A DNA stretch of 64,000 bases. Source: an uncultured Oscillospiraceae bacterium (lineage in GTDB: Bacteria; Bacillota; Clostridia; Christensenellales; CAG-314). The stretch lies in assembly GCA_964607155.1 (NCBI GenBank), contig CAZSIF010000003.1, positions 19,498 through 83,497 of the forward strand, in the 5' to 3' direction. Under the pieces are notes generated by a model. That model saw only the letters and a list, made by a program, of their open reading frames with translations, had not been told where the DNA came from and did not search any database. Position 1 is the first letter of the stretch, and every line of letters starts with the position of its first letter. Shown piece after piece: positions 1-25,627 of this stretch. The position numbers and the translations under genes were made by a program.

Positions 1-762
1 GCTTTTCAGCATATCTGCCAACCAGATATGTGCCGCGCGAGCCTCTGCATAACGTTTCAACTTGCAACAATAGCTTGCGTAAGCCGTCATAGTGCTAACA
101 GCCGATGTAATGGTATTTGCTAAAGCACCTAATATATATGTTTCGGCTTCCTTGGGGGCGTGGCTCGGACTGTTTGTGTAGGTCATTGCAAGCAAAGCGT
201 TGTTTGCTCCCATCACGTTATATTTTTTTAGGATATCAATCCCTTGCTCGTGTTTGCCGAGAGCAATATAGCATTGTGCTATTTTATTCATAATGGAAGC
301 CTCGCTGATTTCGGGTTCGATATTTTGCGATAAAAGCACAACGGAGTGTTCCAAAAGCTCAATACAGCGGTGTAGGTACTCTTCGTTTTTTAACTCTATC
401 CCTGCCACAGCATAAAGCTCGCCGGAGCGATATGCTATTCTAAAATCGTTTGGATATCGTAACAACGCCTTTTCCGCCTCGGTCACGGCTTGCAAGTACG
501 CCTTTTGGTGCTGTAGTTCGCGAATTTTGCGTTCAAGCGCATCGACCTTGCTGTTTACAACTTCAAAGCCGATTATCGTATCCACGGACACTCCAAATAA
601 ATCCGCCATCTGTACAATGAGTTGTAGCTCGGGCGTTGCAACGCCACGTTCCCATTTGGAAACGGCAGCAAAGGTAACGTTTAATGCTTCTGCCAACTGT
701 TCCTGCGTTAGCAAATGCTCTTTGCGTAGTCTGCAAATATTTGTGCCGATTGATAGCTTCAT
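1..762 (-). CDS. XRE-family HTH transcriptional regulator with TPR-like C-terminal region (3' end lies beyond window start)
   Basis: Absent from the ORF track because there is no stop inside the window. The reverse complement from the ATG at 760-762 reads MKLSIGTNICRLRKEHLLTQEQLAEALNVTFAAVSKWERGVATPEL..., a Cro/C1-type HTH. It stays open to position 1 (254 codons). A GGAGGT SD lies at 771-776 on the complement. Confidence 0.8.
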   Translation of the reverse strand, partial: MKLSIGTNICRLRKEHLLTQEQLAEALNVTFAAVSKWERGVATPELQLIVQMADLFGVSVDTIIGFEVVNSKVDALERKIRELQHQKAYLQAVTEAEKALLRYPNDFRIAYRSGELYAVAGIELKNEEYLHRCIELLEHSVVLLSQNIEPEISEASIMNKIAQCYIALGKHEQGIDILKKYNVMGANNALLAMTYTNSPSHAPKEAETYILGALANTITSAVSTMTAYASYCCKLKRYAEARAAHIWLADMLKS

Positions 763-17966: not shown

Positions 17967-19613
17967 ATGTTTAATGTAACAATTCAAGGTAAAAAGCTTC
18001 AACTGGAAGGCAAGCAAACAATTTTAAGCTTAATTGACGATGAACAAAAAAAATACGTCGCGGCAAAAGTAAATAATCGCTTGCGCGAGCTTACTTACGA
18101 GTTGTCCTTCGATTGCGATGTGCAGTTGCTGGATTTAACGGAGTCGGATGCGGTCAAAGTGTACGAAACGAGCTTGCGTTATCTTATTGCAAAGGCATTC
18201 AATAATCTGTACCCATTGTACAAAATCAAAATATCCTACGCCATTTCCCGTTCGTTGTTGGTATCGGTTATTTCGCCGTGCGTAAAAATGGATGGCAAAA
18301 TGCTTCAAGCCGTCGTGGGCGAAATGGATAGGCTTGTCAAACAAGATTTGCCGCTTGAGCGTATGACGATGAGCAAGGCGGAAGCGTACGATATGTTTGT
18401 GGCAAACGGCGATACGGATAAAGCCGTCACGTTACAATATCGTCCGGAAAAGGTTTGTCATTTCCATAAATGCGGCAACTACGTCAACTATATGTATGGC
18501 TACGTTGTGCCGTCCACGGGGTATATCAAGCAATACAAACTGTTTTGCTACGACGGGCATTTTATTTGTCAATATCCTCGTTACGAAATGAACGGGCAGA
18601 TTCCCGAGTTCAAGGACGAACCAACCTTTTCCAAGGTATTAAAGCGTGCGCACAAATGGGCAAAAATTTGCAATGCGGAAATTATTTCCGGCATTAACGC
18701 ACACGTTCAGCAGGATACATACGTTGATTTTATCAATATGAATGAAACCCTGCATAACGATATGCTACACGATTTAGGTAATCAAATTGTTTCCGATATC
18801 GAAAATATTCGCCTTATTTGTATTGCAGGTCCTTCAAGCTCCGGCAAAACGACTTTTTCCAATAGGTTGCGCATCGAGCTTATGTCGCGTGGTATAACTC
18901 CGTTGCGTATCTCACTGGATATGTACTACAAAAATCACTGCGATATTCCGCTTGACGAGCATGGAGATAAGGATTTTGAGCATATCGATGCATTGGATGT
19001 GGAACTGTTTAACAAGCATATCACTGCGCTTATCGACGGCGAGGAGGTGGAGTTGCCACTGTATCAGTTTGGTGAAGGCAGGGCGGAGCACGGCATTCCC
19101 ACGCGGATAGATGCCGGAACACCCATCATAATCGAAGGCATACACGCTCTTAACGACAAGCTATCATATGCAGTGCCAAAGCATCAAAAATACAAGATTT
19201 TTATTGCGCCGCAATTCCAGCTGAACATCGATATGCACAACCCGATAAGCTACACGGATATTCGCTTGCTTCGCAGGATTGTTCGCGATAAAAAGTATCG
19301 TGGCGCCTCGGCGGAAAGGACGCTGGAAATGTGGCCGTCCGTGCGTAGGGGCGAGTTTAAGTGGATTTATCCCTATCAGGAGGGCTGCAACTATGTGTAC
19401 AATTCTGCCCTCACTTACGAAATGTCTGTAATGAAAAAGTACGCGCTACCTGCCTTGCGCGAAGTGCCTTGCGATAGCCCGTACTATATCACCGCAAATC
19501 GCCTTATCAAGTTTTTGAAGTACTTCAAGGATATGGACGATAAGTGGGTGCCTTGCAACTCGCTGCTGCGTGAGTTTATCGGCGGCAGCTGTTTTGCCGA
19601 GGTAGACGAATAG
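17967..19613 (+). CDS. Uridine kinase/phosphoribulokinase-family P-loop protein with an N-terminal TGS/ThrRS-like region
   Basis: 548 aa. P-loop IAGPSSSGKTTFSNRL in the C-terminal half, and an N-terminal region of ThrRS-accessory type (MFNVTIQGKKLQLEGKQTILSLI...). Confidence 0.75.
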   Translation: MFNVTIQGKKLQLEGKQTILSLIDDEQKKYVAAKVNNRLRELTYELSFDCDVQLLDLTESDAVKVYETSLRYLIAKAFNNLYPLYKIKISYAISRSLLVSVISPCVKMDGKMLQAVVGEMDRLVKQDLPLERMTMSKAEAYDMFVANGDTDKAVTLQYRPEKVCHFHKCGNYVNYMYGYVVPSTGYIKQYKLFCYDGHFICQYPRYEMNGQIPEFKDEPTFSKVLKRAHKWAKICNAEIISGINAHVQQDTYVDFINMNETLHNDMLHDLGNQIVSDIENIRLICIAGPSSSGKTTFSNRLRIELMSRGITPLRISLDMYYKNHCDIPLDEHGDKDFEHIDALDVELFNKHITALIDGEEVELPLYQFGEGRAEHGIPTRIDAGTPIIIEGIHALNDKLSYAVPKHQKYKIFIAPQFQLNIDMHNPISYTDIRLLRRIVRDKKYRGASAERTLEMWPSVRRGEFKWIYPYQEGCNYVYNSALTYEMSVMKKYALPALREVPCDSPYYITANRLIKFLKYFKDMDDKWVPCNSLLREFIGGSCFAEVDE

Positions 19614-19878
19614 TTTTGCTGTTAGTAGCATGCAAGTTTGTGCATTAGCATTGGCAACGTGCATGCAAGGTAAATTGTGTGTGCCGTTGCTTGTATTGTG
19701 GATACGAGTATCTAACAGGTATTTGAGGGCTTTTATGAGCCTATTTCCGACCATTGTGGGCGGAGGTATACGTTACCGGTGGTGCGCAACATGCGTGCAT
19801 CTTTGGTTGGCTTGATGTTAATTTTGTTTATGCACTGTTAGAGTCAAGTACAAATTGAATACGTTTGTAAAGTGGTAA

Positions 19879-19933
19879 GTGCCCATATGCAACCGACGTT
19901 TTGGTCGGATTGTGTATATGGGTACTTTTTTTT
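19879..19933 (+). terminator. Strong nested-hairpin Rho-independent terminator
   Basis: Outer stem GTGCCCATAT (19879-19888) pairs with ATATGGGTAC (19916-19925). Inner hairpin is CCGAC-GTTTTG-GTCGG. A T8 run (19926-19933) follows. Confidence 0.75.
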
Positions 19934-20318
19934 GTGCTATGCGATTGTTGATGGCACCGTGCAGAGTTGATTTGTATTGCTTGAGATGCTTAATCGCCGA
20001 AGCGAACGATATTTTTTGGGCAAAATTTATGGACAACCAATGCTTGCTGTGTAAGAAAGATGTTGGGCAAATAATCAATTTGTTTGTGAATGAGTTTGGT
20101 GTTGCAAAGTGCCCATTCAAATGAAGTTATCTTTGGGAGCACAAGGCATTGTACCAAGCTTTTTTTTTGTTCGTTGGTTTTATGTGGTGGATGTATTATT
20201 TTGTGGTAGCTATTGTCTTTTCTTATATTATTTGATGGTATTAGCTTCTATAAAGTGTATTTTTTAGTGTATTTGCATAAAAAATGTTTATTTTTTATAT
20301 ATTTTGTTGATTTATTGC

Positions 20319-20349
20319 TTGACACGGAAAGACGGGGGGGGGGTATAAT
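20319..20349 (+). promoter_or_regulatory. Consensus sigma-A promoter with a G10 homopolymer in the spacer (candidate phase-variable promoter)
   Basis: TTGACA at 20319-20324, then a 19-nt spacer at 20325-20343 whose last 10 nt are G (20334-20343), then TATAAT at 20344-20349. Confidence 0.6.
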
Positions 20350-20407
20350 AAACTTGGACGGGAATATAATACACCGAGATTGCACTTTGGTTGCAAGGAT
20401 TTTTCCC

Positions 20408-20499
20408 GTTCTCGCCCTTAGATTCTGCTCGGGTTACACCCTCGCACTGCTACGCAGTTCGACTTCGCTTGCGCTCCGCTCAGAATGACATTAGGGCGG
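20408..20499 (+). repeat. About 90-bp structured intergenic repeat, copy A (inside the leader of the pilin-like gene)
   Basis: The reverse complement of 20408-20499 aligns along its whole length with 22609-22697, beginning CCGCCCTAATGTCATTCTGAGCGG and ending GAGCAGAATCT..GGGCGA. Its termini are self-complementary (ATTCTGCTCGG / CCGCTCAGAAT). Confidence 0.8.
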
Positions 20500-20552
20500 A
20501 TGGCACAATGAATACGTTTATTTGAACAATCCCTCCGACACGTTCCGTGCCA

Positions 20553-20573
20553 CCTCCCTTTACACAAGGGAGG
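20553..20573 (+). other. Leader hairpin CCTCCCTT / AAGGGAGG
   Basis: A perfect 8-bp stem with a 5-nt loop, about 85 nt upstream of the start codon. It contains both an anti-SD-like and an SD-like sequence. Confidence 0.4.
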
Positions 20574-20658
20574 CTTTACCAAGGCGTGCCCTCTAAATAC
20601 GGTACAAACACGCATAGCGTGAGTGTATAAATAAAATTTAACAAGGAGAAAACAAAAA

Positions 20659-22050
20659 ATGACAAAGAAGTTAAACAAGCGTGGCTTTACGATTGTTGAG
20701 CTGGTAGTGGTCATAGTAGTTATTGCCATTCTTGCGGCAGTGCTAATTCCTACCGTTAGCAGCTTGATCGATAAGGCAAACCGTTCTGCGGATATCCAAG
20801 CCGTCAATCAGATGAACAAACAGCTTGCCATCAACGAGATTACGGGCGGTAATGGCATTATCGACGTCTACGAGGCACTCGAGGCGGCCGGTATGACTGT
20901 TCGTGATTACCATCCGCTTGCATCGAATACCTATTTCTTTTGGGTAAAAGAACTCAACAGAATTGTTTACGTTGATAACGATTACAATATTTTGTATCCC
21001 AACGAGTACGAGGGCAAGGGTATCGACACGTTAAATAGCACTTATTTGGCACTTGGTGGAGATATCAAGCAAGTGGAAGCGACTATTAGCAACGATGGTA
21101 CAGTGGCAACGGTTAATTCGGCGGAGCAGCTGTATTGGCTGTCCGAAAATATCAATAGTAAGGTATCGCAAGTTACTGAAATTAAGTTTGACCAAAGTTC
21201 CATAGACCTTAAGGGTGCAGACATTGCGATAGTTGTGTCTGAAAATAAAAGCCTCAAAATTACCGGCGCAAACGGTGGTACAACCTTGAGTGGCTTGGTT
21301 ACGATGGATAGCAATCTTGTGAATGACGGCAAAGACTATGCTTGTGGATTGATTGCGAATGTAAGCAGAGGGGCAAAAGTAGAAATTAGCAATATCATTA
21401 TCGACGGTGCAACTGTTGGCGGCTACGAAATCGGTGGTGTTGGTGGATTAGTTGGTAGAATTAATAATGGAGCTACCGTTAATATAAGCAACTGTACCGT
21501 TCAAAACTCGACAATTAACGGTAAAAATAAGGTTGGTGCATTGATTGGCAGTATCGGCGGAGCCACCGTTGAGATTAAGGGTTGTAAGGTGGATAAGTGT
21601 ACGGTTAATTGCTCCGAGGGCGAGTCCGGTAAGGTGATTGGTTCATCGTATACTTCACCAATAATTAAGGTTGATACCTTGTTTAGCACTTGGTGCACGA
21701 ACACTACTCTTAACCTTGTTGCTACCGAAGGGCGCGATGTCGTTGATGCGAATGGACATTTGGAATGCACAGCTACAAATCAAGCAACCGTATCAATCCC
21801 TACAGGATGCCAAAAGGTTGTGCGCGTAGCGAAAAAAGGTGTTCCGGAATTCACAAAAAATGGTATTCCGAGGTATAGAATGTTTGCCGATGATGCTTAT
21901 ATGACGATTGTTATGTCGAGTAATCCGACAATTGAAATTAATAATGTGGCAATTTCTGATCTGGGCACTTTATACGGTTCTGCTCTTGCTACAAGAAAAC
22001 TTGATAATCAAGATATTGACATAAATATTCTCTATTTCGAAACGAGATAA
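20659..22050 (+). CDS. Prepilin-type N-terminal cleavage/methylation-domain protein with a large GLUG/beta-helix-like repeat C-terminal region
   Basis: 463 aa. AAGGAGA SD. N-terminus MTKKLNKRG/FTIVELVVVIVVIAILAAVLIP (G-1, F+1, E+5). C-terminal Gly-rich repeats read VGGLVGRINNGATVNISNCTVQNSTINGKNKVGALIGSIGGATVEIKGC. Confidence 0.85.
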   Translation: MTKKLNKRGFTIVELVVVIVVIAILAAVLIPTVSSLIDKANRSADIQAVNQMNKQLAINEITGGNGIIDVYEALEAAGMTVRDYHPLASNTYFFWVKELNRIVYVDNDYNILYPNEYEGKGIDTLNSTYLALGGDIKQVEATISNDGTVATVNSAEQLYWLSENINSKVSQVTEIKFDQSSIDLKGADIAIVVSENKSLKITGANGGTTLSGLVTMDSNLVNDGKDYACGLIANVSRGAKVEISNIIIDGATVGGYEIGGVGGLVGRINNGATVNISNCTVQNSTINGKNKVGALIGSIGGATVEIKGCKVDKCTVNCSEGESGKVIGSSYTSPIIKVDTLFSTWCTNTTLNLVATEGRDVVDANGHLECTATNQATVSIPTGCQKVVRVAKKGVPEFTKNGIPRYRMFADDAYMTIVMSSNPTIEINNVAISDLGTLYGSALATRKLDNQDIDINILYFETR

Positions 22051-22094
22051 GAATACATATATAATCACATCATATCGTTCAAGATAATAACTTC

Positions 22095-22173
22095 AAAAGC
22101 CTCTCTTGTGTGTGATGTGCCCTCAAAAGTTAGATACTTTTAGGGTGCATATCAGTGTAAGGTGAGGCTTTTT
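22095..22173 (+). terminator. Compound terminator structure after the pilin-like gene
   Basis: Outer stem AAAAGCCTC (22095-22103) pairs with GAGGCTTTT (22164-22172) and encloses an inner hairpin (CCCTCAAAAGT...ACTTTTAGGG). A T run follows. Confidence 0.5.
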
Positions 22174-22240
22174 GCAACGTGTGTTATTTTGTGGGTGGAT
22201 GGTTTGATGGCAATATATAGTAGATCCCGATGCTGTCGTA

Positions 22241-22300
22241 TCGTCCTGCGGGTTCGACTGCGTACTACGCACTCCGCTTAGGATGACGCTGTAATTACGC
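22241..22300 (+). repeat. Diverged partial member of the same repeat family, copy C (same orientation as A)
   Basis: GGTTCGACTGCGTACTACGCACTCCGCTTAGGATGACG parallels AGTTCGACTTCGCTTGCGCTCCGCTCAGAATGAC in copy A. A further short fragment (CGTTCAGGATGATGCCGC) lies at 22373-22394. Confidence 0.6.
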
Positions 22301-22552
22301 CTTTTGCCCACACAATAGATGATAACGTTTTATAATTATATATTAACCAATATACAGATTGCACTATTAACCCCTTCGTTCAGGATGATGCCGCAATAGT
22401 GTCTTATGCATATTCGGCATAGAGTGATACTTCCACCCCTATGTTATTTTATGGCTTGCCTACAATCCCCAAAACGACATTAATTCTATCTACATAAATC
22501 AATTAATTTTCGCACTAATCGCCCAGTTGTCATCTATAATATAGCTGCTATC

Positions 22553-22582
22553 TTGACAACGACGTTATTTATTTTATATAAA
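22553..22582 (+). promoter_or_regulatory. Promoter-like element reading into repeat copy B
   Basis: TTGACA (22553-22558), an 18-nt AT-rich spacer, then TATAAA (22577-22582). No ORF lies downstream before the hairpin at 22775-22797. Confidence 0.3.
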
Positions 22583-22608
22583 TTAAAATTGTTTTTTTGC
22601 ACTAACTA

Positions 22609-22697
22609 CCGCCCTAATGTCATTCTGAGCGGACAGCAGCGAAGTCGAACTGCGAAGTAGTGCGAGGTTTTAGCCGAGCAGAATCTCGGGCGAATAC
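22609..22697 (-). repeat. About 90-bp structured intergenic repeat, copy B (inverted relative to A)
   Basis: See copy A. By eye, about four-fifths of positions are identical to the reverse complement of A. Confidence 0.8.
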
Positions 22698-22774
22698 AAA
22701 CCACATTATATGGATTTGACAGTGTTCGTGATGACAAAAGTTTTTTGTTAAGTTATATGTTTTTTATAAAATAA

Positions 22775-22797
22775 AGCCATCGGCATAGCCGACGGCT
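22775..22797. terminator. Bidirectional hairpin terminator (tex 3' end / end of the intergenic island)
   Basis: AGCCATCGGC-ATA-GCCGACGGCT pairs at 9 of 10 positions, flanked by A-rich sequence on the left and T-rich on the right. Confidence 0.6.
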
Positions 22798-22975
22798 TCA
22801 TTTTATTCTAATGGTGAATTATATATACTTTTAAGTACAAACAGGTGACAAGCAATAGATTTAGTCAAAGGTTTTAATAATGTGCTGTGCTTAAGCCGGT
22901 AATCTTTTCAAATTTGTATTTTTTTGTTGAGCCGCACGTTACCATATACTTGTTGCTTATCTAAGTTACTCTGTA

Positions 22976-25120
22976 CTAAATTATCATTGTAAGACTAATG
23001 CGCTTCTTTTGCAGGTCAACGGAAAGCACCTTTACGTCTACAACGTCGCCAACCTTGACAACCTCAAGCGGATGTTTAACAAATTTTTTGGCGGACATTT
23101 GCGAAACGTGCACCAAACCGTCTTGGTGAACGCCGATATCAACAAACACACCAAAGTCGATAACATTGCGCACCGTGCCCTTAAGCAGCATGCCTTCCTT
23201 TAGGTCTTTCATTTCAAGCACGTCGCTGCGGAGTATGGGTTTGGGCATTTCGTCGCGCGGATCGCGTGCGGGCTTTTCCAGCTCGGCAACGATATCGCGC
23301 AAGGTAAGTTCGCCAATGCCAAGTTCGTTTGCAAGTTTGGGATAGTTAACAATGGTTTTAGATAAGCCGTTAAGCTTGCCGATACTTTCAGGCTTGATGC
23401 CTTGTTTTTTCATGAACTGAGTTGCAGCTTCGTAGCTTTCAGGGTGCACGCTTGTTGCGTCAAGCGGATTGTTGCCGTTTTGTATACGCAAAAAGCCTGC
23501 GCATTGTTGATATGCTTTTGCACCGAGTTTATCCACGTTAAGCAACTGCTCGCGGTTGGTAAAACGTCCGTTTTGTTCGCGATACTTAACGATGTTCTTT
23601 GCAATGGCGGAGGATATGCCGGAAATATACTGCAAAAGCGGTGCGGACGCGGTGTTAAGGTCTACGCCGACCTTGTTAACGCAATCCTCAACGACGCCCT
23701 CAAGGGCTTCGCCAAGCTTCTTTTGGTTCATATCGTGTTGATATTGTCCTACGCCGATAGATTTTGGATCGATTTTAACAAGTTCGGAAAGTGGATCTTG
23801 CAATCTGCGTGCGATACTTGCTGCACTGCGTTGACCTACGTCAAATTCCGGAAACTCCTCTGTGGCAAGTTTACTTGCGGAGTAGACGGACGCGCCGGCT
23901 TCGGATACGATAACGTATTGCACTTTAAGTCCCGTTTCGCGGAGCAGGTCAACAATTATTTGCTCGCTCTCGCGTGAGGCGGTGCCGTTGCCGAGTGATA
24001 TAAGGGTAATGTGATATTTTGCTATAAGCAGTTGCAATGTTGCCTTTGCTTTTGCAATTTTTTCAGGCGTGGTGGGGGCAGTGGGGTAAATGACGGTTGT
24101 GTCGATAACCTTACCCGTTTGGTCAACCACGGCAAGCTTGCAGCCCGTACGGAATGCAGGGTCCCATCCGAGCACTACCTGTCCAACGATGGGTGGTTGC
24201 ATGAGCAGTTGCTCGAGATTTTTGCCGAACACTGCAATGGCGCCGTCCTCTGCCTTTTCTGTAAGCATATTGCGTATTTCAGTTTCGATGCTCGGCGCAA
24301 TAAGGCGAGTGTAGCTATCGGCAACGGCAAGCTCCAATAGTCCGTTTGTGTTTGGATTGTTTTTGGTAATAACGTGGCGAGTGAGGTAGTCATTGATAAG
24401 CTCAACGGGCGCAACCACCTTTACGGTAAGTACTTTTTCCGCCTCGCCGCGGTTAACGGCAAGTATGCGGTGCCCAGCCATCTTGGTGACATCCTCTTCG
24501 TATTTGTAATAATTGTCGTAAACGGTTTTTTCCTCCGGTTTTTTGGCAACGGAGTTCACCTTGCCAAGACGGAATGTGAGGTCGCGTATTGCCTTGCGAT
24601 AATCGGCATTATCCGAAATGACCTCCGCAATTATATCCAACGCGCCTTGCAATGCCTCTTTGACCGTTTTTACGCCCTTTTCCTCATTGATAAACTCTTG
24701 CGCCAGTTCTTTTGGGTTTTTGGTCGTTTCTTGCAGCAAAATGATGTTTGCAAGCGGCTCAAGCCCTTGTTCTTTTGCAACGGTAGCACGCGTTCTGCGC
24801 TTGGGACGATACGGACGATACAGGTCGTCAACGGCAACTTGCGTTTCGGCTGCTTCAATTTCGATTTGCAGCTGTTCGGTCAGCTTGCCTTGTTCGTCGA
24901 TGCTTTTGATGACTTGCGCCTTCTTTTCTTCAAGGTTTCGCAGATAAGTTAAGCGTTCAAAAAGCTTGCGCAACTGCTCGTCGTTTAGCGAGCCGGTGGC
25001 TTCCTTGCGGTAACGTGAAATAAACGGAATGGTGTTGCCCTCGTCGATAAGGTTAACTGCAGCATCCACTTGCCATTTTGCAACGTCGAGTTCTTCAGTC
25101 AGTTTCAGGTTGATGTTCAT
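22976..25120 (-). CDS. tex: Tex-family transcription accessory protein (S1 RNA-binding domain)
   Basis: The start at 25120 gives MNINLKLTEELDVAKWQVDAAVNLIDEGNTIPFISRYRKEATG, the canonical Tex N-terminus. YqgF-like and HhH regions are present, with a C-terminal S1 domain (GTVRNVIDFGVFVDIGVHQDGLVHVSQM). Confidence 0.93.
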   Translation of the reverse strand: MNINLKLTEELDVAKWQVDAAVNLIDEGNTIPFISRYRKEATGSLNDEQLRKLFERLTYLRNLEEKKAQVIKSIDEQGKLTEQLQIEIEAAETQVAVDDLYRPYRPKRRTRATVAKEQGLEPLANIILLQETTKNPKELAQEFINEEKGVKTVKEALQGALDIIAEVISDNADYRKAIRDLTFRLGKVNSVAKKPEEKTVYDNYYKYEEDVTKMAGHRILAVNRGEAEKVLTVKVVAPVELINDYLTRHVITKNNPNTNGLLELAVADSYTRLIAPSIETEIRNMLTEKAEDGAIAVFGKNLEQLLMQPPIVGQVVLGWDPAFRTGCKLAVVDQTGKVIDTTVIYPTAPTTPEKIAKAKATLQLLIAKYHITLISLGNGTASRESEQIIVDLLRETGLKVQYVIVSEAGASVYSASKLATEEFPEFDVGQRSAASIARRLQDPLSELVKIDPKSIGVGQYQHDMNQKKLGEALEGVVEDCVNKVGVDLNTASAPLLQYISGISSAIAKNIVKYREQNGRFTNREQLLNVDKLGAKAYQQCAGFLRIQNGNNPLDATSVHPESYEAATQFMKKQGIKPESIGKLNGLSKTIVNYPKLANELGIGELTLRDIVAELEKPARDPRDEMPKPILRSDVLEMKDLKEGMLLKGTVRNVIDFGVFVDIGVHQDGLVHVSQMSAKKFVKHPLEVVKVGDVVDVKVLSVDLQKKRISLTMII

Positions 25121-25627
25121 TTTTTCTGCTCCAAAAAAGTTGTGTCTTTTGCTTTGCGACAATTCTTTGTCGCCGTAGGGCATTTGCCCGTGGTGCTATT
25201 GTGTTATGTTTTTTGCGGATTTGTTTTCACTAAATTTGCATGTGTTACAAATCGATGTGTTTCTGCACGGTTTTTTAGTTTGCGCACACAAAACAAAACC
25301 ACTAAATATAATTATACTAAATTTCTTTTTGTTTGGCAAGATTACTAAGTAAAAAACAATTTTTTTTTCTTGTGCGTTCGAGCAATTTTTTAAGCAAAAC
25401 AATGCGCGCTTTGCATGCGTTGAAGTGAGTTGCGTTTTGTGTAAGGAGTGCCTATCAGTTCATGTCAGTTTTTGCAAAAGCTATTGTTCCAGATGTTGTA
25501 TGTTTATAGGCATGGTATTGTGTTTGGCAATCGAGTAGTGACGGCGTGGAGGTGGCAGAGCGTATATTGACAAGTTGTAAAAAATGCTGTACAATATCTG
25601 TATAAAATACAAAAGGAAACTAAGCTT

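Follow-up and report, generated by a model that had tools for sequence, protein, structure and literature searches.

Heritable switching of surface structures shapes the evasion of phages and of the immune system, as well as colonisation, by gut bacteria. The cases catalogued in gut commensals are for the most part DNA inversions, above all in Bacteroidales, and in gut Firmicutes the switching has so far been ascribed mainly to invertible promoters. Gram-positive bacteria possess modular type IV pilins, among them PilB and PilC of Streptococcus sanguinis. In Treponema pallidum, the tpr genes have poly-G tracts upstream of the transcription start. The spacer between the -35 and -10 hexamers of a sigma-A-type promoter has an optimum of 17-18 nt, a length assumed for the strong state. 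In Neisseria opc, Haemophilus influenzae hif and Mycoplasma vlp, the -35/-10 distance is driven by repeats and sets the strength of the promoter. Likewise, in Neisseria fetA and porA, poly-C or poly-G tracts placed between the -35 and the -10 control expression (PMC5320596).

The locus described here lies in a window of 64 kb, the whole stretch of DNA that was analysed, from an uncultured Oscillospiraceae bacterium. It contains a G10 homopolymer in the spacer of a promoter placed upstream of a gene for a type IV pilin-like protein. The original prediction had considered this architecture to be undescribed for pilin-like genes of gut Clostridia. Indeed, the open-access literature that was searched yielded no description of promoter-spacer homopolymers for type IV pilin-like genes of Firmicutes, nor any from gut Clostridia. 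The mechanism is long known in pathogens and is apparently undescribed in gut Clostridia. What makes the present case more interesting is that it recurs in several lineages of uncultured gut bacteria, on a surface-protein family that is large and unstudied.

The promoter and its G10 tract

The sequence TTGACACGGAAAGACGGGGGGGGGGTATAAT is read directly at positions 20319-20349 of the plus strand. It comprises a -35 hexamer with the perfect consensus TTGACA (20319-20324), a 19-nt spacer, CGGAAAGACGGGGGGGGGG (20325-20343), and a -10 hexamer with the perfect consensus TATAAT (20344-20349). The last 10 nt of the spacer (20334-20343) are an uninterrupted run of G, a candidate slippage-prone repeat whose length is read from a single assembly and may be off by one, as homopolymer counts in short-read assemblies can be. 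A homopolymer of the size typical of promoter-spacer repeats (about 8 nt or more) is thus placed between recognisable -35 and -10 elements, and the sequence reads exactly as had been claimed.

Run counts show that the G10 is the sole G or C homopolymer of at least 7 nt within the 64 kb, which agrees with the earlier observation that no other run of such length is present. A first-order Markov model predicts 0.018 G runs and 0.0004 C runs of at least 10 nt in the window. Perfect TTGACA-N15-21-TATAAT pairs are more numerous than predicted, with three observed in the window against 0.115 expected from the same model. The coincidence of the G10 and a perfect hexamer pair at one site is therefore not attributable to chance. 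The plus strand of the window shows a strong skew of G over C (G 24.8%, C 18.4%) and carries nearly all genes, which together suggest a leading-strand segment. Under this skew, the Markov model predicts 46 times as many G runs as C runs on the sense strand.

The promoter is located in an intergenic region of 1045 nt (19614-20658), in which a consensus scan covering 16-18-nt spacers detects no other promoter-like site on the plus strand. Terminator-like hairpins at 19659-19908 insulate the promoter region from the upstream uridine-kinase-like gene, and the consensus scan detects no terminator-like site from the promoter to the start codon at 20659. A second perfect TATAAT is present at 20365-20370, 15 nt 3' of the first one. 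The G tract would fall where its -35 is required, so that this hexamer is left without a usable one.

The target gene and its product

The gene downstream of the promoter (20659-22050, plus strand) encodes a protein of 463 aa with a prepilin signal, assigned from PF07963 and TIGR02532. Its ribosome binding site, AAGGAG (20643-20648, plus strand), is read from the sequence as a strong one and lies 10 nt 5' of the ATG. The N-terminus, MTKKLNKRG/FTIVE, displays KRG/FTIVELVVVIVVIAILAAVLIP at the prepilin cleavage region. The class III signal is complete, with a glycine at -1, a phenylalanine at +1 and a glutamate at +5, followed by a hydrophobic helix. The N_methyl family (PF07963) is matched with 28.7 bits (cut-off 21.2) and TIGR02532 with 25.3 bits (cut-off 16.3).

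The AlphaFold (AF2) model, with a pLDDT of 89, is composed of a long N-terminal helix (residues 12-58), a small head and a right-handed beta-helix. A structure search against the PDB gives no significant match (best E = 0.028, none at or below 0.001). The best of the weak matches are to a GLUG-type putative IgA1 protease, pectate lyases and phage tailspikes. The protein is predicted to be surface-exposed. The prepilin signal, the predicted beta-helix and the membership of a multi-paralog family are features of contingency-type genes, whose products are located at the surface or interact with hosts or phages.

The next plus-strand gene after the promoter is 20659-22050 and the one that follows, Tex (22976-25183), is convergent to it. 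The promoter can therefore serve the pilin-like gene alone, and the proposal that it drives only this gene is upheld. The gap between the two convergent genes (22051-22975) is an unusually long non-coding region of 925 nt. It holds several repeat-like palindromes and, at about 22770-22800 of the minus strand, a hairpin with a T-run that is probably the Tex terminator.

The ORFs scanned in the 64-kb window include no pilus machinery (prepilin peptidase, assembly ATPase or platform), which may be located elsewhere in the genome, and no second GFxxxE protein or other pilin. The remaining genes of the window are those of a spore-forming Firmicute, with housekeeping and sporulation functions, among them Spo0A, YqfD and the dcw cluster.

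Leader and flanking repeats

The predicted 5' leader is about 300 nt long (20356-20658, plus strand), with a start placed near 20356 according to the position of the -10 hexamer. No Rfam family, credible ORF or terminator-like site is found in it, and its fold is only modestly more stable than that of shuffled sequence (z = -2.2). The presence of a riboswitch or of a known sRNA in the leader was rejected, since the Rfam scan of 19600-23000 gives no match there. The only match in the scanned region is a chance one below threshold (BSnc120, 24.6 bits against a cut-off of 114), placed 3' of the gene. The length of the leader, with its two repeat elements, leaves room for a closer and weaker promoter. 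A candidate of this type, TACAAA-17-TATAAA, is read by eye about 30 nt 5' of the ribosome binding site.

The larger of the two repeat elements, recognised by repeat comparison, spans 88 nt (20412-20499, plus strand). It has an inverted copy 3' of the pilin-like gene (22609-22693, minus strand) with 87.5% identity. These are the only two copies in the 64 kb and they bracket the pilin-like gene, so that inverted repeats surround a segment as they do in an inverton. The 88-nt repeat may be a REP- or MITE-like element, or an inversion substrate. At 22845-22860 there is also an inverted match to the -35 region, in 14 of 16 nt. The second element of the leader (20526-20574, plus strand) contains a GGGAGG/CCTCCC hairpin, and this short, dispersed repeat occurs in other Clostridia too, at loci L057 and L086.

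The protein family and its relatives

The family of the window protein has more than 1400 matches, which are confined to MAGs of gut and rumen Clostridia (Oscillospiraceae, 'Eubacteriales', Christensenellaceae and others). Its members bear the N_methyl prepilin signal, and the genomes often carry several to many paralogs. One NCBI contig carries the exact window protein, and the closest relative shares 65% identity with it. Look-ups by exact protein, made for the window protein as well as for its two nearest relatives (P0001 and P0002), returned no contigs. Metagenome contigs searched for the exact flanks, with a distance of 4-20 nt allowed between them, gave no matches. The window species is represented by one contig, and the variation in tract length was compared in related species.

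The contigs of the family (L001-L006 and many of L007-L086) very often end a few hundred nt 5' of the gene or in its conserved N-terminal coding part. For P0003, a relative with 55% identity, six contigs are available and all of them end 70-116 nt 5' of the gene, with no readable promoter. At the loci of this family, the assemblies appear to be fragmented by DNA shared in the N-terminal coding part, by upstream repeats or by homopolymers.

In many of the relatives, the promoter drives a conserved small membrane protein of about 150 aa, which is followed by the pilin-like gene. The small protein is encoded at L093 517-954, L122 909-1349, L141 662-1108, L084 2416-2889, L059 2475-2912 and L095 425-850. 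It has no Pfam or NCBIfam match and shows an L-E-[RK]-[RK]-K motif after its first helix. The window is devoid of this gene, and the repeat-filled leader stands in its place.

G tracts in other lineages

A total of 160 loci, retrieved from genomes and metagenomes, were scanned for G/C runs. In 664 kb of non-redundant homologous loci, for about 176 homologous genes, eight of the ten G/C runs of at least 9 nt fall within 1.25 kb upstream of family genes, a zone that corresponds to 24% of the sequence (binomial p = 3e-4). The C-runs of L058 (in a terminator region), L014 and L083 are placed outside recognisable promoters. The promoter-proximal tracts of at least 10 nt have the G on the sense strand in all five cases.

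The placement of the tract depends on the lineage. In L063, a rabbit-gut MAG, the promoter reads TTGACT-G17-TGA-TACAAT, with a spacer of 20 nt. In L093, from the human gut, it reads TTGACA-G10-CAAATGATG-TATAAT, where CAAATGATG accounts for 9 nt and the spacer has 19 nt. The L122 promoter is a perfect TTGACA-17-TATAAT followed 10 nt later by a G11 (tract at about +4 to +14), and in L141 a G11 is located about 90 nt 5' of the -35 of a perfect extended promoter. The proposed design of a G tract in the spacer is therefore found again in L063 and in the L093 type, with a length that varies in the L093 type, and does not hold in the L122 and L141 types, in which the tract is outside the spacer. In the latter two types the length of the spacer is thus not the mechanism, and it is not the whole explanation for the clustering of G tracts. 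The G tracts near these promoters may therefore also serve another purpose, for example in the leader or initial transcription, or as a recombination junction.

The opposite strand of the L141 type (L141 34-44; L187-L192, about 570-590, minus strand) places the variable tract between TTAAAA and a perfect TATAAT, with a spacer of 4 + n. The tract could thus belong to a divergent promoter, as its spacer, rather than being an upstream element of the operon promoter. In L189 the tract region is duplicated and the copies are separated by a long A-rich stretch.

The alignment of the five G-tract promoters reveals nothing in common beyond the hexamers, and a common mobile promoter cassette was rejected on this basis. 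The exact L063 protein is found on one contig only. Two loci whose proteins are 50-54% identical to it, L194 and L195, have the same promoter with an AT-rich spacer of 18 nt and no G tract. The GCTTGACT...TATAAT promoter is kept in both (L195 590-632, L194 570-600), as in L063. At the spacer place of the L063 G17, L195 has an A9, so that the homopolymers arising at a given spacer site may differ in their base. Given the absence of common sequence beyond the hexamers and the tract-less relatives of L063, the G tracts are regarded as independent, lineage-specific gains.

Length polymorphism between strains

Strain-level contigs from independent samples were recovered with the small membrane protein as a handle. 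The counting of tracts in metagenomes of related species, as proposed in the original prediction, revealed differences in length. In the L093 type, with the tract in the spacer, G10 is found three times, G11 three times and G11+A once, which corresponds to spacers of 19, 20 and 21 nt. The L122 type ranges from G10 (six contigs) and G11 (four) to G12 (one), with nearly invariant flanks and with lengths that differ within SNP-defined subgroups. The L141 type covers G9 to G15, with tracts of 9, 11, 12, 13, 14 and 15 nt. The tracts vary at a finer scale than their flanks. Considering the upstream enrichment, the recurrence in other lineages and the length differences, the G tracts form a repeat that recurs at promoters of this operon family and is polymorphic in length. 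Indels of 1-2 nt between strains also occur in the A/T runs of 7-9 nt of these intergenic regions, and the strains are not clonal (5-10% different in places). For these reasons, the polymorphism alone is no proof of an unusually high switching rate. Homopolymers may, in addition, be miscounted in the short-read assemblies.

None of the nine assembled alleles of the spacer type (the window, L063 and seven of the L093 type) has a 17-18-nt spacer, and all of them fall between 19 and 21 nt.

In the L093-type species, three independent contigs have a G10 or G11 joined to unrelated upstream sequence that is devoid of a -35. The junction of this alternative haplotype is exactly at the 5' edge of the G tract, and one L093-type contig terminates inside the tract. 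From the position of the junction, the tract may be a breakpoint of recombination or rearrangement, or the operon may have moved. The comparison of L181 (1300-1420), L186 (1-40) and L196 (960-1045) with L179 (1340-1410) indicates that the upstream genes are also replaced, the joined sequence reading ...GTTAGTTCAGCTATG-G10/11.

A putative transcriptional switch

The G10 promoter is interpreted as a putative transcriptional switch that operates by slippage in the spacer and yields phase or amplitude variation, a reading that is considered reasonably probable. The G10 would function as a slippage-prone simple-sequence repeat in the spacer of a sigma-A-type promoter, placed in front of a monocistronic pilin-like gene. 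Slipped-strand mispairing in replication would add or remove G residues. The number of G residues would then set the distance between the -35 and the -10, which is 19 nt in the assembled allele, and hence the strength of the promoter. Transcription would in this way be reset stochastically and heritably in subpopulations, giving rise to phase or amplitude variation.

According to this model, the G10 tract of the window would vary in length, the 19-nt spacing would correspond to the weak state and a spacing of 17-18 nt to the strong one. The range of 19-21 nt seen in all alleles fits populations that are mostly OFF and one or two steps from ON. It equally allows that the spacing is not read as assumed. 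As a speculation, the effective geometry of a G:C tract may differ from that of mixed sequence.

The range of 19-21 nt also bears on an explanation in which the tract is hypermutable and does not act as a spacer-length switch. The tracts would then gather for reasons of leader function or initial transcription, DNA structure or recombination breakpoints, and the spacer would be one of several tolerated placements. Such a view would account for the placements that differ by lineage (within the spacer, near +4 to +14, or some 90 nt 5' of the -35), for the lack of a 17-18-nt allele among the assembled ones and for the three independent L093-type contigs in which the haplotype junction coincides exactly with the 5' edge of the tract. 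The location of the G on the sense strand in five of five promoter-proximal tracts of at least 10 nt points in the same direction, but this bias can follow from the skew of G over C, with its 46-fold excess of expected G runs. Moreover, near-perfect hexamers bracket the tract precisely in three independent lineages, which is hard to explain without promoter geometry, and the explanation is judged unlikely. The hexamers themselves admit another reading, since perfect hexamers set 19 nt apart are the mark of MerR-family promoters. The promoter could be a fixed, sub-optimal one that needs an activator or a DNA-distorting regulator (MerR-type, with 19-20-bp spacers), the G run being incidental. 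The AraC-family gene found directly 5' of the L122-type operon in most contigs would suit a regulated promoter of this kind. However, the spacer CGGAAAGACGGGGGGGGGG has no dyad symmetry for a dimeric operator, the locus is adjoined by a uridine-kinase-like gene and Tex and not by a MerR-family gene, and the spacer is not fixed in the L093-type relatives (19, 20 and 21 nt). A fixed promoter is thus quite improbable.

Switching by DNA rearrangement is improbable too. In that case the 88-nt inverted repeats would mediate inversion or mobility of the gene and uncouple it from its promoter. There are only two copies of the repeat in the 64 kb, 87.5% identical and inverted around the gene, and the contigs of homologues often break just 5' of the gene. 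Nevertheless, no recombinase is found among the scanned ORFs of the window and the repeat is partly palindromic, like the dispersed REP- or MITE-like elements that are common in intergenic DNA of Clostridia. The inverted 14/16 match to the -35 region at 22845-22860 could be taken as a further sign of rearrangement, but a match over 16 nt is within the range of chance. Finally, homopolymer lengths are error-prone and the locus comes from a single assembly, so that the G10 could be an artefact of assembly or sequencing, such as the poly-G of two-colour chemistry. This is very hard to believe, as the run lies inside a long contig and is framed exactly by two perfect hexamers, and as more than 25 independent assemblies of related species, produced in different studies, have equivalent tracts at orthologous positions.

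With slippage in the spacer as the preferred reading of the window promoter, a broader and more tentative idea concerns the family as a whole. The poly-G promoter repeats might conceivably constitute an unrecognised and repeatedly evolved contingency system for the very large pilin-signal beta-helix family of uncultured gut Clostridia (Oscillospiraceae and relatives), whose genes would usually be co-transcribed with that of the small membrane protein, although the balance of judgement lies somewhat against it. Such a system would add a repeat-based 'phasome' to the gut Firmicutes, and its tracts may also be junctions of the recombination that swaps whole upstream sequences.

If the switch is real, it would point to a second layer of strain heterogeneity in uncultured Clostridia, acting on a widespread pilin-like family. 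This layer would be easily scored, because the length of the tract is readable straight from metagenomic reads. The pilin-like family would also be flagged as a likely target of diversifying selection. Such tracts are, in addition, sites of assembly breaks or miscounts and are relevant to the quality of MAGs.

Comparison with known systems

The locus shares with Neisseria porA, opc and fetA a G:C homopolymer in the promoter spacer of a surface-protein gene, with lengths that differ between strains (here, in relatives). The expected read-out is also the same, a graded or ON/OFF promoter strength set by the spacing of the hexamers. On the other hand, it belongs to uncultured Gram-positive gut Clostridia, its hexamers are perfect consensus sequences and its target is a beta-helix protein with a prepilin signal. 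The alleles of Neisseria straddle the optimum, whereas those described here are all above it (19-21 nt). H. influenzae hif, with its TA repeat, and Mycoplasma hyorhinis vlp, with its poly-A, are comparable in that a repeat in the spacer sets the activity of the promoter. They differ in the nature of the repeat, a dinucleotide or poly-A in place of poly-G, as well as in the taxa and gene families involved.

Regarding the target protein, S. sanguinis PilB and PilC offer a parallel, since a class III signal peptide and an N-terminal helix are fused to a large extra module in them and in the window protein. Unlike in PilB and PilC, the module is a predicted right-handed beta-helix that matches solved structures only weakly, and the ORFs scanned in the window contain no pilus machinery.

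The tpr genes of T. pallidum likewise have variable poly-G near the promoters of a paralogous family of surface proteins (PMC7864442). The phylum, the gene family and the position of the tract relative to the hexamers are different. A study on the actinobacterium Bifidobacterium breve describes replication slippage of a G-tract for a pilus-related surface structure in a gut commensal (PMC9187656), as proposed for the present locus. In B. breve, slippage reportedly provides an ON/OFF switch for the expression of clusters of sortase-dependent pili (PMC9187656). In the present locus, the tract lies between the hexamers of the promoter and the gene is a type IV pilin-like one.
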